This document shows, in pieces, positions 25,222 through 56,206 of a DNA stretch of 64,000 bases. Where the stretch lies: positions 1 through 64,000 of the forward strand of contig CAXXFK010000041.1 of NCBI GenBank assembly GCA_963663965.2. Reading direction: 5' to 3'. The translations under genes and the position numbers were made by a program. This DNA comes from Sedimentisphaerales bacterium. GTDB lineage: Bacteria > Planctomycetota > Phycisphaerae > Sedimentisphaerales > SM23-30. The notes below the pieces were generated by a model. That model searched no databases. It was not told the origin of the DNA and was given only the letters and a program-made list of their open reading frames with translations. Within the stretch, counting starts at the first letter, position 1, and every line of letters starts with the position of its first letter.

Positions 25222-25817
25222 CAATTAAGCCAGTTATCGGCCGCCGGCTCTGCGGTTATGCTTTGCCGGGAAGGTCTCCATGGGATATCATTCTATCCTG
25301 ATAACAGGATTACATCTCGGACAGCACGCATAGAATGATAGCCTGCTCGCCATATAACATCATATCAAATAGCAGGTTACGATGCAAGCAGTAAATTAAC
25401 CGCAGGATATCAGGGAATACCGGACCAGAACGGTCATCTATAGAACAGAGTCCTGCCGCAACACCGAGCTACTTTCTGAAATCAGGTCTTAAGGGAGTTC
25501 TAACACTCTTCCATTGGCCGTATCATTCAAGCACCCATGAAACTGGGTGAAAGATAACTGATTTATGGCCCCACCTGAACGCACAGCATTCGTTTCTGAT
25601 CCCGGATCAGCAAGATAGAGCCATCGGCGCCCAGTTCTGCCCTCCCTCAAGCATCTCTGCCGACTGGGTAGCCTCGGTTATCTGTCTCGGGTGCCACCGG
25701 ACAAGCGCAGCTTGCCGGTGGATAACCCGTCATCGCCCATGATAACACCGTCTCCATGAAAAGTAAAAGATCACAAGCAACGCCTGTCTTCCCAATTCTA
25801 TACTGCTTACAATTGAA

Positions 25818-25901
25818 AATGCCCGCTGGGCCGTGATATAAGTTCTATACGAGTTAATACTTATCTTGCGAGCGATCGGGAATTTTCATACCCATTGGGT
25901 A
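25818..25901. repeat. ~83-bp dispersed repeat, copy 2
   Basis: Direct repeat of 25139-25221; ends conserved, centre diverged. Confidence 0.9.
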
Positions 25902-25931: not shown

Positions 25932-26957
<1,026 letters not shown>

Positions 26958-27184
26958 TTAGTCGGCACTTTCATATAAGTTCATTTCACACTCATTAGAC
27001 ATGTTGAATTATACCTTGTAAAAACCGAAGGTGATAGATCGATCCTGCCTATTTCTTGCCTGATCGTCCGAATCTTCCTGCAATCAGGTTGCCAGTCCGG
27101 GAGCCACGTGATATGATTATATTGGATAATGTTGGCAAAAAATAGCCAATACTTGCTAAAAAATAAACACTTATAAAACACGCC

Positions 27185-28075
27185 ATGAATACCGAACACG
27201 AGCCGCTAAATATAAGCATTGCACGATGGACCGAAACGCCGGACATCATTGAAACAGCCATCCCCGATCTGTTGAACTATCGGCGCGATGAACCCACCCA
27301 GCCCGCCAACGCCATGTATGAACCCACCATTTGCCTGATCGCCCAGGGCGCTAAAAGGGTGTTTCTCGGCGGCGAATCCTATGTCTACGACCCGCACCAT
27401 TTTTTAATGACCTCAGTAGATACTCCCACCACCTTCCAGGTAATGGACGCCTCCAGACAGAAACCATGCCTGGGACTGGTATTGAAACTGGATTTGCGCG
27501 AAATCACCCAGTTAATTGTGGATGGCAATCTTCCCCAACCGCGCTCGCCACAATCCAACCGCGCCATGGCCCTCGGCAAAATCACCCTTCCGCTGCTCGA
27601 CGCCTTTCAACGGCTTATGGGCTTGCTGGACGAACCCAAAGACATTCCAATCCTGGCCCCGATTATCAAGCGGGAAATATTTTACCGGCTGCTGGTGGGC
27701 GACCAGGGTGCCCGTTTAAGACAGATGACCTCCGCCGGCACCCCCGGCTATCAGATCGCCAGGGCTATCGACTGGCTCAAGGATAACTACGACAAGGCCC
27801 TGCGCATCGATGACCTGGCCTCCCTGGTCCACATGAGCACCTCAACCTTTCATCATCACTTCCGCTCAATCACCGCCATGAGCCCCCTGCAATACCAGAA
27901 ATGGCTGCGCCTCAACGAAGCCAGACGCCTCATGCTGGCCGAATCCCTGGATGTCGGTTCCGCCGCGTTCAAGGTCGGCTACGAAAGCCCCTCCCAGTTC
28001 AGTCGCGAATACAGCCGCCTGTTCGGCAATTCCCCCCTGCGCGACATCACCAGCTTTCGCCAGACAACCTCCTGA
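27185..28075 (+). CDS. AraC-family transcriptional regulator (YqhC-like)
   Basis: YEPTICLIAQGAK N-domain; SPLQYQKWLRL, VGYESPSQFSREY HTH; divergent from AKR. Confidence 0.93.
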   Translation: MNTEHEPLNISIARWTETPDIIETAIPDLLNYRRDEPTQPANAMYEPTICLIAQGAKRVFLGGESYVYDPHHFLMTSVDTPTTFQVMDASRQKPCLGLVLKLDLREITQLIVDGNLPQPRSPQSNRAMALGKITLPLLDAFQRLMGLLDEPKDIPILAPIIKREIFYRLLVGDQGARLRQMTSAGTPGYQIARAIDWLKDNYDKALRIDDLASLVHMSTSTFHHHFRSITAMSPLQYQKWLRLNEARRLMLAESLDVGSAAFKVGYESPSQFSREYSRLFGNSPLRDITSFRQTTS

Positions 28076-28747
28076 ATGATAAGTCTGTGCGATTTTCGAT
28101 GACTATTGTCAGGCCAATGGTAAAGTTTCGGTTTTGGCATCCTGTTGAGAGGCTGGGTGTCTGATTTGAATCTGAGGCAAAAAGGAGGGTGGCATTTCTG
28201 CATTTTCAGGTTCTTTATAAATCATAGTCAATACCATTTTATTGACAACTTCTAAAACATAATTCTTTACAAATAAGTCAATAAGAATTAATCGGTTGAA
28301 TTTTTACTTGATGTGAAAATGTTGTAAAATCATAAATATTATGTTATATAAAATAAAAACATAATAATTAATTTGCTTTGTATTGCAACTCCGTCTATAA
28401 TACCAAAGTCGATTAAATAGCTCAAACCACCCGCCAGCCTCCGGCGTGCCCCGTCCCAACCGGCCACGCCCGCAGAGATTCTCTGCGCATAGACTGTGGC
28501 ACCCTCAAGCACAGCTTGTGGGTGCATGCTTGGCCTGGTGCTATCTGATGCGGACCAGACCCAACCAGCCAATTTATTTTGGCTGTTAATGCTGTTAATA
28601 AGGTACGACGAAATGGAAACCAGTAAAAACAACACAACCCGCCAACCCAAACGTAAAAGGCCCGAAGGTCGAAGATCCGCCTCAGGAGGAACCGACCGTT
28701 TCTAGCCAGGGTCGTAAGGCCCCGGTCAGCGATAGAAGTTTAATTTT

Positions 28748-29457
28748 TTTAAACCCCCGCCTCTCCGAGGCGTACCGCCAGGATATCTCGCAAAAGAGAT
28801 AGATAAAAAAACATGAGCGCAGCGAATACCAACAGAAAACGAAACAAAGCCAATGGGTTAAAATATTGCCATAACCCTAACAATATATCGAGCTTAACGA
28901 AAAATAAAAACTCATCCGCCTCAAGGCGGATACAAATAATATCTCGGAGAGATCAAAAGCGCATAGCCCGTCAATTCATTGGCGGGAATACCCGAACCAG
29001 CGTAGAAAATTTTAAACCCACGCCTCGCAGAGGCGTACCGACAGGATTTCGAACCGGAGGCGAAAAATAAAACCAACATGAGCGCAGCGAATACCAAACC
29101 AAAACGAAACAAACCCAACATGAAAAAATATCACTCTAACCTCAGCGTTAAAATGAGCTTAACGAAAATAATAATTTCATCCGCCAAATGGCGGATACCC
29201 AAAGCGGCCCAACGGGCCGGCATAAAACAGCCCGGGGCAGAGCGAGTCCCGATCCATCGGGACGAGCGCCACCCTGGGTACTAAACCCGAATTATAAATT
29301 TCTTAACCCACGCCTCGTAGAGGCGTACCGACAGGATATCTCGCAAAAGAGATAGATAAAACTAACCATGAGCGCAGCGAATACCAACACAAAACGAAAC
29401 GAAGCCAATGCTTAAAATTATTGCCATAACATTAACAAACAATTGACTTTAACGAAA
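28748..29457 (+). repeat. Three tandem ~160-185-bp repeat units (28748-28931, 29010-29197, 29301-29457) with variable spacers
   Basis: Each: AACCC.CGCCTC...GAGGCGTACCG.CAGGAT...CATGAGCGCAGCGAATACCAA...AAACGAAAC.AA.CCAA...TAAC...TTAACGAAA. Confidence 0.92.
29197..29280. repeat. REP-like palindromic element (inverted copy at 55015-55101)
   Basis: CCCAAAGCGGCCCAACGGGC.GG.ATAAAA.AGCCC.GGGCAGAGCGA.TCCCGAT...CGGGACGAGCG.CACCCTGGGT. Confidence 0.85.
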
Positions 29458-29510
29458 CCCGAAACCATCGGGCCAAAACTTATAACAATCTTTTAACAGG
29501 AGGTACCACT

Positions 29511-30350
29511 ATGTCATCTTCACTACGAAGACTCAGAGCCAACCGTCGTAACGCCCAGAAATCCACCGGCCCCAAAACCCCCGAGGGCAAGGCCATCTCA
29601 TCCAGAAATGCCATCAAGCACGGCCTCAGCGGCCAGGATCCCGCCCACCTCATTGTCCCCGGCGAATCCGAACTCACCTACCTCGAATTCCGCGCCGCGC
29701 TGTTACAAGACCTCAAACCAACGACTTATCTCCAACGCCACATCGCCGACCAGATCGTCTCGGCCGCCTGGCGTTTGGAACGCCTCGGCCGCATCGAAGC
29801 CGAGATGATCGACGCCCGCGTCTATAAACTCCGCCTCACCAACGAAGAAATCCGCAAAGACACCGTCATCGACCAGCCCTTCGCCCACTCCAGCATCTAC
29901 TTACCACGTCACAACGAAGTCGGTACCGCCTTCACCCTCGAAGTCCCCGCCTTCAACTGCCTGGCCCGCTACGAAGCCCACCTCAACCGTACCTTCCAGG
30001 CCAATCTTAAGCTCCTGCAACAGTTGCAATTACAACAAAAACCAAACGAACCCAATGCCTACCCGCCTGAGTACCCATTTCCCGACTTACCCCGCGTCCA
30101 CATTCCCGACCCACCCAGAATCCCCACGCACCCCAGCGAAGCCAAATTGGCCCCCGAATACATCAAAGACCGACTCCCCGAATTGATGAAAGACCACAGC
30201 GTAACTGACGACCAGGTCTTCAGTTACGCCTGCAACCGCTACGAAGCCCTCAACACCTTCTCCCAGCAGAACGGCGAAGAAGCCCTCCACGCCCTCGGCA
30301 TCCCCACCAAACCCCCGGCCGATATCCCCATCAAGGAGGTTAAGAAATAA
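29511..30350 (+). CDS. Conserved hypothetical protein with NAQKSTGPKTPEGK...NAIKHG N-terminus (HGGxSTG-related motif)
   Basis: AGGAGG SD; 279 aa; WRLERL..IE and RYEAHLNR helices; Pro-rich tail with NEPN. Confidence 0.8.
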   Translation: MSSSLRRLRANRRNAQKSTGPKTPEGKAISSRNAIKHGLSGQDPAHLIVPGESELTYLEFRAALLQDLKPTTYLQRHIADQIVSAAWRLERLGRIEAEMIDARVYKLRLTNEEIRKDTVIDQPFAHSSIYLPRHNEVGTAFTLEVPAFNCLARYEAHLNRTFQANLKLLQQLQLQQKPNEPNAYPPEYPFPDLPRVHIPDPPRIPTHPSEAKLAPEYIKDRLPELMKDHSVTDDQVFSYACNRYEALNTFSQQNGEEALHALGIPTKPPADIPIKEVKK

Positions 30351-30662
30351 GGTAGCCCCGATCACTACAACCAGTGCATAACACCTGTGGATTGAGCAAA
30401 AAACCCAATCCACCCAGCCCTGTTGCGCATATTAACAGATTACGGGATTACAGCTGATAGTATCAAATCCCGTATGTAAAATGACTTAACTTATGAAATT
30501 ACAAATGCATAAGGTAACTCTCATGACTGGGCAGGCCATTGCCGTGGCAAATGGATATGTCATCACTGAATAACTAAATGTGTTAAAAATTATTCTTGAA
30601 AGAAACAGATCGTCCTGTTTATGATCCATTTATATTTTAAGGGTTTAACACCATTTTTATGC

Positions 30663-53700: not shown

Positions 53701-54467
53701 AAAACTCACCACCCGGCAAATCACCCAGCCCCGTCATAGTACCATTTTCCCAAATAAAACGCTTCACCAGGCCCCGGCCATATCTCTGTTTTTTGACTGT
53801 AACCAACGACAACTTGTCCGTTAGCAGATATCGCATTGGCACGGCTTTTATTTCCACCCAAATGCCCTAATGGCTTAATACCTTCTGATTCTGTCCAACG
53901 AGACGCATAGTTATTACCTCCAAACATGGCATAGCCAACAATAACAGAGTTATTTTGAGAGATATCTGAGCAATGCCCGATTAATTCCCAGCCAGTTTCA
54001 GATTGCCAGAATCCTTTATCACTTAAAAGAATAGTACCATCAGCCGATATGCCTGTCACATAATATCCAGCGGAATCCAGCAGGCATGTTGCTTGACCAT
54101 TATTCCAGATAAAGGGTGTTGACCCGCTTGACGATGATACCGAATTCCCTGCTATAATGGCCCCATTAAAGTTACAGGTTTTGGCTTCTGAATGCTGGCG
54201 GTTACAAAAATAGCCTAATTCTTGTATCCCTTCATCAACAGACCAGATAACAGCATATCCAAATGATTGATTGCCTGGTACTTCATACGCTTGACCTACA
54301 ATAACATTACCATCACCGGAAATACCAAAGGCCTGGCTTTGCATGAAATCTGGAATTGCTCCTGGGATATTTCCCATTCTATAAAAACGAGCTTCACTCC
54401 AAAGGGAGGAACATAGAATCAGAGAAACGAAAAAAACAAACCGCATAACAACCGTATTCTTAACCAT
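50741..54467 (-). CDS. Secreted HAF-repeat / GLUG-repeat protein with dockerin-like tail (frameshift at 53756-53759; ~1241 aa if repaired)
   Basis: HAF repeats (S.A.AIS.NG.VVVGYS) continue across the junction EAF|IWENGTMTGLGDLPGG; GSGT..DPY/F and many VGGLCG.N repeats. Confidence 0.8.
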
Positions 54468-54660: not shown

Positions 54661-55211
54661 GGTAAGACCTTTCTAATCTTAAGGTTAGGGCGATATTTTT
54701 TCGTATTGGCTTCGTTTGGTTTTGGGTTGGCAATCGCTGCGCTCATGGTTGGTTTCCTTTCTTTGCGAGAAATACTGTCAGTAGCGCCTTGGGGAGGCGG
54801 TGGTTAAAATGGAAGTAGGAAGTAGTATAATTTTCACGCCAATGAATTGGTGGGTTATTCACGGTTATCTCCTTCTGAGGCGGACCTTCGGCCTTTGGGG
54901 TATTATTGGTATCCGCCGGAGGGCGGATGGTCAGTTTTATCTATCGCTGCAGAGCGATATCCTGGCGGTTCGCCTCTGCGAGGCGTGGGTTAAAAAATTA
55001 ATTTCATGTTTGTGACCCAGGGTGACGCTCGTCCCGAAGGATCGGGATTCGCTCTGCCCTGGGCTATTTTATACCAGCCCGTTGGGCCGCTTTGGGTATC
55101 CGTCCTCCTGAGGCGGACCTGCGGCCTATGTCGGATGGTTTTTTAATTTTTCGTTAAGATCAATTCTTTGTTGAGGTTATGGCAATATTTATGGGTATTG
55201 GGTTTGTTTCG
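54661..55211 (-). repeat. Inverted copies of the 28748-29457 repeat family (54661-54810 near full; 54931-55010 5' half; 55015-55101 REP-like; 55133-55211 3' half)
   Basis: Reverse complement gives CGCCTC...GGCG..CATGAGCGCAGCGA.T.CCAA..AAACGAAGCCAAT and AACCCACGCCTCGCAGAGGCG.ACCGCCAGGATATC. Confidence 0.9.
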
Positions 55212-55240
55212 CACCGGGTCATGATGGTTGGTGGTTGATG

Positions 55241-56027
55241 TCAGTAGTGACGGCATTGGAGGGTGGTGTCGGTTGGGGTGTTCTGGGAATTTTCTGCCGG
55301 CGTGAATGGTTTTATGTCATTGTTATAATTTTGGTTATAGTCGTGATTATTGGTGTTGGGTTCGTTTGGCGCTGGGGGATAGTTGGAGTGGTTGGGGGCG
55401 TATTGATGGGGTGTTTGGTTCAAAGGATCGGGATGAGATTCGTAGCGTTCGTAGCTGGAAGTGTGGTGGTAGTTATGGGTTGGTTTGTTTGTTTCTAAGT
55501 TTTTGTTATTGTTTGTGTTATGGTTGAATTTGCCTTCTTTGGGTTCGTTTGGTATTGGTTGGGTTTCGGGTTGTTGGCCTGGTTCGGGGGTGGCGTTTGG
55601 GTCGCACTGGATGGCGGGGGTGATCTGGTAGCCGGCTTCGAAGAGGATTTCTTTGGATTGCTGGATGATCTGCTGGTATTCCAGGTCGGTGGGCGGGCCA
55701 TCGGGGAGGCAATCTTTGAAGGAGTTGGAAACGGTGATGAACTGACGGATGAGTTGGGCAGTAGCGCGGCGGGCGGTGACGTTGTTGTCGGAGCGGGGAC
55801 TGGACGACGAGCCGTTGGAGGGCCTGGTGGCCGGCGCGGGTGGCGCGGAGTTTGTAGTCGCGGCGATCATAGGCGATCAGGCCGGCCAGTTCGCAGTGGT
55901 AGGAGTGGGTGTCGATGATATATTGATGCTGGCGGCGGGTGGTGTTGATGGTGGCGAGGAAGATGTCATCAATTTCGGGGCGGTGGTAGTATTGGGCACG
56001 GGCGAGAATTTGCATGGAACGATTCAT
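55241..56027 (-). CDS. Hypothetical protein with NEP(N/K) low-complexity tail (frameshift at 55795-55798; ~261 aa if repaired)
   Basis: AAGGAGG SD before ATG 56027; removing one C joins MNRSMQ...ALQRLVVQS to RSDNNVTARRATAQL...PNEPK...PNEPN. Confidence 0.6.
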
Positions 56028-56206
56028 GTTATACCTCCTTTTAACCTTAATAATGTTTTGTGTTTGACCGTTAGTGGCCGACTGTTGGGATTATAGGTTG
56101 CATTTCAATAATAGTCAAATAAATAATAATATTAATTGCAATAAATACATAATATAAGAAAATTTCACCGTGAAGTAAGTGAAGGGAGTGAAGAAACAGC
56201 CGGAGA

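Follow-up and report, generated by a model that had tools for sequence, protein, structure and literature searches.

A multicopy gene-and-site cassette in Sedimentisphaerales and its possible link to phage DNA packaging

The first 64,000 bp of contig CAXXFK010000041.1 from a Sedimentisphaerales bacterium (a stretch hereafter called the window) carry a cassette in which a single gene, encoding a 279-residue protein with an STGP motif, follows three repeat units that each contain a composite DNA site. The genome as a whole (G000; 7.24 Mb in 42 contigs, 94.6% complete) holds 26 full-length copies of this gene, all intact and distinct, plus two fragments, and the coupling of gene and site extends across phyla. 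We regard the cassette, its site and their coupling as solid, and the mechanism proposed below as a supported hypothesis. The explanation that we tentatively prefer is that the cassette is a selfish, one-gene unit, multicopy and recombining, that works in the manner of a small terminase and its pac site. With somewhat greater reserve, we suggest that such cassettes might represent a widespread and still unnamed type of minimal selfish element, “packaging drivers,” that steers the terminases of gene transfer agents (GTAs) or phages to begin packaging at the element itself. We are similarly guarded in proposing that the gene of these elements could derive from small terminases and that gene and pac-like site have together colonized chromosomes by the dozen.

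At 50% identity, the family of the STGP protein comprises 53,051 clusters (E≤0.001); it lacks annotation and reaches ~100 copies in single genomes of soil or sediment bacteria. This family now has a cis site, an architecture and a candidate partner. Either of the two leading readings, terminase hijacking or a new recombinase, would imply a class of mobile elements for which no transposase is known. If the packaging reading is true, the cassette would shape the choice of genes transferred from cell to cell in Acidobacteria and in Planctomycetes, and otherwise random transfer would become site-directed lateral transduction. That reading would also explain a protein family that is among the largest unannotated ones in bacteria, together with a GTA-like cluster of Acidobacteria. 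No description of the cassette was found in the literature searched, which did not extend to subscription papers and supplements.

Architecture of the cassette

The initial annotation described three repeat units ahead of a gene led by a Shine-Dalgarno (SD) sequence, each unit bearing a GC hairpin, an invariant sequence, a shared motif and a quasi-palindrome. All of these features are present. The units have a conserved core of ~190 bp (start-to-start distances of 265 and 290; mean column identity 81%), their hairpins of the form CGCCTC-N3-GAGGCG begin at 28758, 29021 and 29311, and the 21-mer CATGAGCGCAGCGAATACCAA is unchanged in all of them. The motif was found at 28842, 29107 and 29397 and again within the gene at 30044, and the TAA..TTA quasi-palindrome occupies a fixed position at +30..+54 with a 19-nt spacer. 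The intragenic site lacks the TAA-N19-TTA half. Two aspects of the original description required revision. The element begins near 28213 rather than at 28620, and includes promoter-like sequence, and what had been presented as one locus is one of 26 full copies, with a cassette of a second type (family B) also residing in the window (~54700-56100, minus strand). The motif has 12 matches in the window at ≤1 mismatch versus 1.53 expected, and none of 100 shuffled sequences reached 12. The features of the window are listed below.

28213..30429, plus strand: whole family-A cassette, 2217 bp, with fuzzy ends and no target-site duplication
28213..28372, plus strand: AT-rich 5' module common to copies, beginning CTTTATAAA.CA.AG, matched 44 times in the genome at ≤2 mismatches, often where cassettes begin
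28373..28401, plus strand: candidate sigma70-like promoter, TTGCTT-17-TATAAT, by consensus match
28402..28745, plus strand: GC-rich leader built from modules, among them small palindromes, and mosaic from copy to copy
28746..28933, plus strand: unit 1, with GC hairpin 28758-28772, core site 28842-28853 and TAA-N19-TTA 28872-28896
29009..29198, plus strand: unit 2, with hairpin from 29021, core site 29107-29118 and TAA-N19-TTA 29137-29161
29299..29488, plus strand: unit 3, with hairpin from 29311, core site 29397-29408 and TAA-N19-TTA 29427-29451
29498..30350, plus strand: SD sequence AGGAGG (29498-29503) and 279-aa STGP gene (open reading frame [ORF] 29511-30350)
30044..30055, plus strand: intragenic core site, encoding NEPN, located +533 from the start codon in 26/26 copies
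30387..30429, plus strand: 3' hairpin (30387-30413), then TGCGCA, where shared sequence ends
54700..56120, minus strand: family-B cassette, with sites at 55550, 55367, 55209 and 54717 and a frameshifted version of the host's small-terminase-position gene starting at 56027

Family-A copies share the same order of sequences: an AT-rich 5' module, a sigma70-like promoter (matched in 24 of 26), a mosaic leader with one to four units, the ORF, and a 3' hairpin near TGCGCA. This hairpin has a median z of -1.5 across copies, with 13 of 26 below -1.5. Short-read contigs, probably from the source sample and serving as an assembly check only, agree exactly with both flanks as far as the element edges, and therefore the family-A element is not an assembly artefact. 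Summed short-read depth is ~100-160 over the element versus 2-5 in the flanks, which is a pile-up of ~30-fold.

A composite DNA site coupled to the gene

The repeat is a composite site consisting of AAACRAASCCAA and, in fixed phase, TAA-N19-TTR. Strict matches to AAACRAASCCAA number 258 in the genome, versus 3.7 expected, and are distributed among 118 clusters, with close neighbors co-oriented in 139 of 140 pairs. TAA-N19-TTR is positioned at exactly +30 in 118 of the 258 sites, versus 0.27 when shuffled. Integration host factor (IHF) has the consensus WATCAA-N4-TTR, and the spacing of TAA-N19-TTR would fit two overlapping inverted IHF sites; a relaxed IHF pattern is present at +42 in 26 of the 258 sites. 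Gene-less clusters lie mostly on the C-rich strand (34/40), as do family-B copies (12/13), versus 43% of long ORFs. The corresponding bias of family A is weak (17/26, p 0.17).

A scan for co-occurrence of motif and gene supports the original proposal of a DNA-site/protein system. Among 80 loci from Acidobacteria, Planctomycetes, Proteobacteria and others, several of which share genomes and so are not independent, 103 motif matches lie 250-1000 bp from the gene start, versus 34 in the other ~10 kb. Of these loci, 41 have the motif on the gene strand and 23 have it on the other strand. Its occurrence in either orientation and in any frame suggests that it is a double-stranded DNA site. Leaders of the cassettes share nothing between phyla, and it is the gene-site pair that is conserved. 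Acidobacterial copies (17 loci) are 80-96% alike within a genome and have fuzzy ends.

Within the order, 8 of 31 genomes including G000 carry the gene and 23 do not. The site is expanded only in gene-bearing genomes (258, 176, 36 and 17 matches), with ≤13 matches in all 23 genomes that lack the gene. One of the carriers, G024, has two genes and 176 sites, including many gene-less arrays, and most of the gene-less arrays examined there and in G030 retain the promoter.

Dispersed copies that recombine under selection

Nucleotide identity among family-A copies ranges from 0.889 to 0.961, and no identical pair exists among the 26. Synonymous polymorphism (pS, 0.234) greatly exceeds nonsynonymous polymorphism (pN, 0.026), giving a pN/pS of ~0.11, and the protein tail is constrained as well (pN 0.037, pS 0.203). 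The 26 dispersed copies are under purifying selection. In addition, the four-gamete test fails for 4747 of 8515 informative site pairs, as often for near pairs as for far ones, and the family-A copies therefore recombine freely.

Flanks of the cassettes are mostly unique, and the few shared stretches include other insertion sequences (IS) and short common flanks. No neighbor gene is conserved across ~90 cassette loci. The genome contains matches to known mobile enzymes (11 Y1 transposases, 16 tyrosine recombinases and 9 reverse transcriptases [RTs]), none of which adjoins a family-A copy by the coordinates listed.

The features that define several established classes were not found, and for this reason the cassette is not filed under any of them. 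The IS and the miniature inverted-repeat transposable element (MITE) would bring terminal inverted repeats, target duplication and near-identical copies; neither target duplication nor inverted termini occur in the seven copies for which both ends can be defined. The cassette carries a single gene, with none of the integrase, att sites or replication module of a phage-inducible chromosomal island (PICI) or other phage satellite. The initial annotation had considered a MITE or repetitive extragenic palindrome (REP) family whose transposase lies elsewhere. The STGP protein has no match to PF01797 of the REP-associated tyrosine transposases (RAYTs), and the 11 Y1 genes are located elsewhere. Finally, the position directly upstream of a large terminase, expected of a phage small terminase, is occupied by 0/26 family-A copies and by one family-B copy and its orthologues.

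Other mobile sequences were noted along the way. An HUH/RAYT-like gene of ~317 aa has at least seven near-identical copies (C20:163917, C20:289186, C25:218435, C29:188411, C30:16454, C33:125354 and C1:253069 of G000) with strongly C-rich codons, several of which follow a related ATACACAGTG-TTGACA module. Cassette leaders at C3:47962, C36:5472 and C28:399916 hold other inserted IS, which read as IS110-like and ISL3-like. Five RT genes of 580-583 aa and equal score (on C2, C6, C21, C25 and C28) probably constitute a multicopy group II intron and are not near cassettes.

The STGP protein family

Searches with the STGP protein produced no Pfam, NCBIfam, PDB-sequence or significant fold match. PDB and fold searches returned generic coiled coils only (Z≤7.4), and matches in the ESM Atlas were to unnamed clusters only. 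When 120 homologues were compared with PHROGs, the matches were weak and scattered, and included three small-terminase families with one member each (E 0.002-0.006). The predicted model is all-helical, with two short helices around STGP, a long hairpin (predicted local distance difference test mostly >90) and a low-confidence tail. The protein can be divided into an N-terminal module (residues ~3-62), a helical hairpin core (~54-176) and a Pro-rich tail. Conservation stops near residue 175, and residues R12, S18, H37, W87, R91 and Y154 are near-invariant.

Among 150 sampled genomes of one phylum, 11 have a match, and in 8 of the 11, all from one family, it is a single-copy homologue of the core only. 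This core-only protein is possibly a domesticated form. It is ~200 aa long, and 5 of 6 loci read (L190-L195; anammox-like genomes, by reading) place it directly ahead of a fatty-acid operon with genes resembling those for acyl carrier protein, FabZ and FabF.

A possible link to terminases

The initial annotation had hinted at small terminases, and the N-terminal module of the STGP protein strengthens this lead. Its ~45 residues match phage proteins located before large terminases. Among 50,697 phage records, the sole match (E 0.09, in two records of a single phage) is to Bacillus phage vB_BboS-125, whose matching gene lies immediately beside that for the large terminase and aligns with STGP by hhalign at 96%. 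In 37 viral loci, a set selected with the same shared motif, 30 match the module only and 7 are full-length; an ORF of >500 aa comes next in 20 of the 30. A scan for large terminases found that 5 of 13 ORFs match phrog_2 at E≤1e-5, and, on visual inspection, 7 of the remaining 8 look like the terminase of BboS-125. Alignment by hhalign to small terminases assigned by position reaches 98-99%, and all profile alignments, at 96-99%, span only ~42 columns. On these alignments, we take the module to be homologous to phage genes in the small-terminase position. Passages of PMC9611059 describe small terminases as having an N-terminal DNA-binding part, a helical-hairpin oligomerization core and a flexible tail, and place the P22 pac site within the small-terminase gene.

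The second amplified family, B, shares its promoter type and sites with family A. It comprises 15 starts, of which 10 have an intact N-domain, and has pS of 0.154 and pN of 0.031. In relatives, the large terminase is preceded by a gene to which family B is homologous (hhalign 89%, E 2e-6), and 12 copies match at E 1e-5 to 2e-4 among 42,224 ORF stretches. One copy occupies the slot before a large terminase at C30:124448, and the terminase behind it matches phrog_2 (E 3e-12). None of the 26 family-A copies is near this gene, the sole large terminase found in G000.

In the Sedimentisphaerales, this large terminase is nearly always single-copy and is part of a conserved, often fragmented module that includes genes for a repressor, a helix-turn-helix (HTH) protein, an ATPase, GNAT-like and ParB-like proteins (labels given by reading of the sequences) and a protein of 137-156 aa. 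The last of these matches PF13022, which we take to be the phBC6A51 family, in 6 of 11 members, and its predicted model combines an HTH with a helical hairpin. The top 50 Foldseek matches include six named small terminases and one phBC6A51-type entry, none at E≤0.001. In passages of PMC11331095, phBC6A51 is counted among small terminases. PDB sequence searches with family-B relatives retrieved neither 2AO9 nor any terminase, and these relatives have no similarity to family A. Family B is homologous to the 137-156-aa gene, and two unrelated small-terminase-like genes have thus been amplified under selection in one cassette type.

At C30:122206-131764 of G000 and at loci L200-L211, a CI/LexA-like repressor gene is divergent from the HTH gene, and no head genes adjoin the module. 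The large terminase of Sedimentisphaerales is often solitary and sometimes lies by a dnaA-like gene. Two small integrase-bearing, satellite-like elements (C22:88091-92851 and C24:2173-6845) each contain a gene homologous to the one in the small-terminase position, and both lack the motif.

A head-tail cluster in carrier Acidobacteria

Three acidobacterial genomes with many STGP matches (90, 109 and 20) have one terminase-portal-scaffold-capsid-tail cluster each.

L196-L198 (G031:C12, G033:C4, G032:C3): head-tail cluster loci, single-copy and chromosomal, in Bryobacterales-like Acidobacteria

The capsid gene is present in 31 of 41 acidobacterial relatives, with 71-80% capsid identity over full-length matches. 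In 40 sampled relatives, which exclude one unpublished genome and include kin that are not independent, capsid gene and STGP family are both present in 30, both absent in 9, and discordant in 1 with the capsid only (39 concordant). The cluster looks like a gene transfer agent. No paper on it was found in the literature searched, which left most subscription papers uncovered.

Proposed mechanism

We propose that the STGP protein would oligomerize through its helical hairpin and bind C(C/G)AAACRAASCCAA, while IHF would bend the TAA-N19-TTR segment. The model for this IHF step is the lambda cos layout, in which cosB sites are combined with IHF. The protein might then recruit a large terminase borrowed from the host or from a phage, which would cut imprecisely near the site, as happens at a pac site. 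DNA that starts at the cassette would consequently be over-packaged and delivered to sibling cells, where homologous recombination with flanks and other copies could yield mosaics. Occasional illegitimate joining of cut ends could seed new loci, and the gene-less arrays of promoter and site would be non-autonomous riders. Fuzzy ends and the lack of duplication fit such joining. The least secure part of the mechanism is how a cut would lead to a new locus.

Several known systems offer partial parallels. P22-type small terminases with their pac site, along with lambda cosB, resemble the cassette in having an N-terminal module, a helical hairpin core (predicted for the STGP protein), a flexible tail, an asymmetric site within the gene, and repeated sites with an IHF-like segment. 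In contrast, the cassette stands alone with 20-109 chromosomal matches per genome and a promoter-like site of its own, is without an adjacent large terminase, portal or capsid gene, and has a core whose similarity is not above controls. Phage satellites such as PICIs and PICI-like elements (PLEs) encode their own small terminase, and a parasite of this kind would likewise redirect a helper terminase to its own site; unlike them, the cassette has no integrase, att sites or replicon and consists of one gene in ~2 kb with many mosaic copies. The REP/RAYT and IS200/IS605 systems, whose enzymes are HUH proteins, also combine few genes with many gene-less repeats, strand bias and no duplication, but the cassette protein lacks the HUH fold, its asymmetric site occurs in either orientation, and its copies are 4-11% divergent and all intact. 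GTAs such as RcGTA are matched by the single conserved head-tail cluster of carrier Acidobacteria and by the repressor-terminase module of Sedimentisphaerales, but the cassette is not itself a GTA and instead would bias an otherwise random packager.

A number of results weigh against the packaging proposal. Residues 41-178 of the STGP protein have no profile similarity to phage proteins beyond block-shuffled controls, no terminase fold matches the protein, and 0/7 full-length viral members lie beside a terminase. The core-only homologue comes without the N-terminal module or site enrichment in 8/8 genomes of its family (f36). The site is absent around 30 phage module loci, around the terminase module of relatives, and from two of three acidobacterial head clusters, and therefore is not the host's own pac site. 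Of the 31 genomes in the order, 24 have the large terminase but only 8 the cassette, and G034 and G035 carry the STGP gene (2 and 7 matches) with no match to this terminase clade. Moreover, the large terminase of G000 apparently departs from the conserved frame at around residue 460, and no head genes were found in this genome by PF05065, PF04860, phrog_145 or tblastn with acidobacterial portal and capsid proteins, the only families used. Four gene-bearing genomes of the order have background site counts. Neither an empty site nor an excised circle was detected, and short-read joints are indistinguishable from other copies. The acidobacterial concordance may simply follow kinship, and the presence of family B may reflect no more than a cassette that happened to land on the terminase module and picked it up, in which case its purifying selection needs explaining.

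Alternative explanations

Among the rivals of the packaging proposal, the one we take most seriously, while judging it rather unlikely, is that the protein is a new cis-acting recombinase or transposase, with the sites serving as binding arms together with IHF and the DNA-binding module borrowed from small terminases. In its favor are a gene and site that stand alone without conserved neighbors, the many gene-less arrays per gene (as in G024), the site-IHF-site layout, the strand bias of gene-less arrays and family B, and the six near-invariant residues. However, the all-helical fold has no recombinase match, inverted termini, target duplication and identical copies are lacking, the strand bias of family A is weak, and selection on the co-amplified family B is left unexplained. 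The intactness of all 26 copies under purifying selection, the amplification of two unrelated terminase-like genes, the promoter-like sites, and the lack of head genes in G000 by the families tested would suit packaging interference that benefits the host, wherein small terminases and sites, diverse and maintained in many copies, act as decoys by which the packaging of phages is jammed or misdirected. Phage satellites that block packaging provide a precedent (10.1101/2024.04.22.590561). This idea is unlikely nonetheless, given that dispersal to unique loci, gene-less arrays and strand polarity are unexplained by it, and that the cassette is patchy among close kin.

The remaining possibilities are more doubtful. 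Dispersed-site systems such as MatP/matS and KOPS (FtsK-orienting polar sequences) bring to mind a chromosome-organizing or regulatory DNA-binding protein, for which the 258 sites in 118 clusters that are polar relative to GC skew, and a single-copy core homologue conserved in one family, could be cited. Such systems have one gene, whereas here the gene number ranges from 0 to 109, and the sites reside inside promoter-bearing modules and are absent from most relatives, making this explanation very unlikely. We give scarcely more credence, and if anything slightly less, to passive REP- or MITE-like cargo moved in trans by a Y1/RAYT transposase, a tyrosine recombinase or an RT. The leader does have small palindromes and the genome has candidate enzymes of each kind, but none adjoins family-A copies by the coordinates listed, and the gene-site pair is conserved across phyla with unrelated leaders. 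Least probable of all is regulation of the gene by units acting as structured RNAs or as leader peptides, two identities that the initial annotation had offered for them. A promoter does lie upstream, and the GC hairpin and an ATG are near-invariant. However, the ORFs of 93 ATG-bearing units vary from 7 to 146 aa with an SD-like sequence in only 4, and the site can lie on the gene strand or on the opposite one. No Rfam family matched at gathering score, the best being Acido-Lenti-1 at 24.7 bits versus 37, in a spacer hairpin. Hairpin covariation is uninformative, because the two commonest variants (64/95) have one unchanged stem.

Additional observations

The cassette in the window is part of a C-rich island (25932-30430), formed with an aldo-keto reductase gene and an AraC gene, on an otherwise G-rich plus strand. 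GC skew flips directly 3' of this cassette. Over the whole genome, regions upstream of site clusters are more strongly skewed than those downstream, as if cassettes mark rearrangement breakpoints. Just beyond the end of the aldo-keto reductase gene, a short high-copy repeat (25740-25900) has 65-89 genome matches. Overlapping ORFs of 248 and 1038 aa at 53721-53857 on the minus strand are apparently one frameshifted surface-protein gene.

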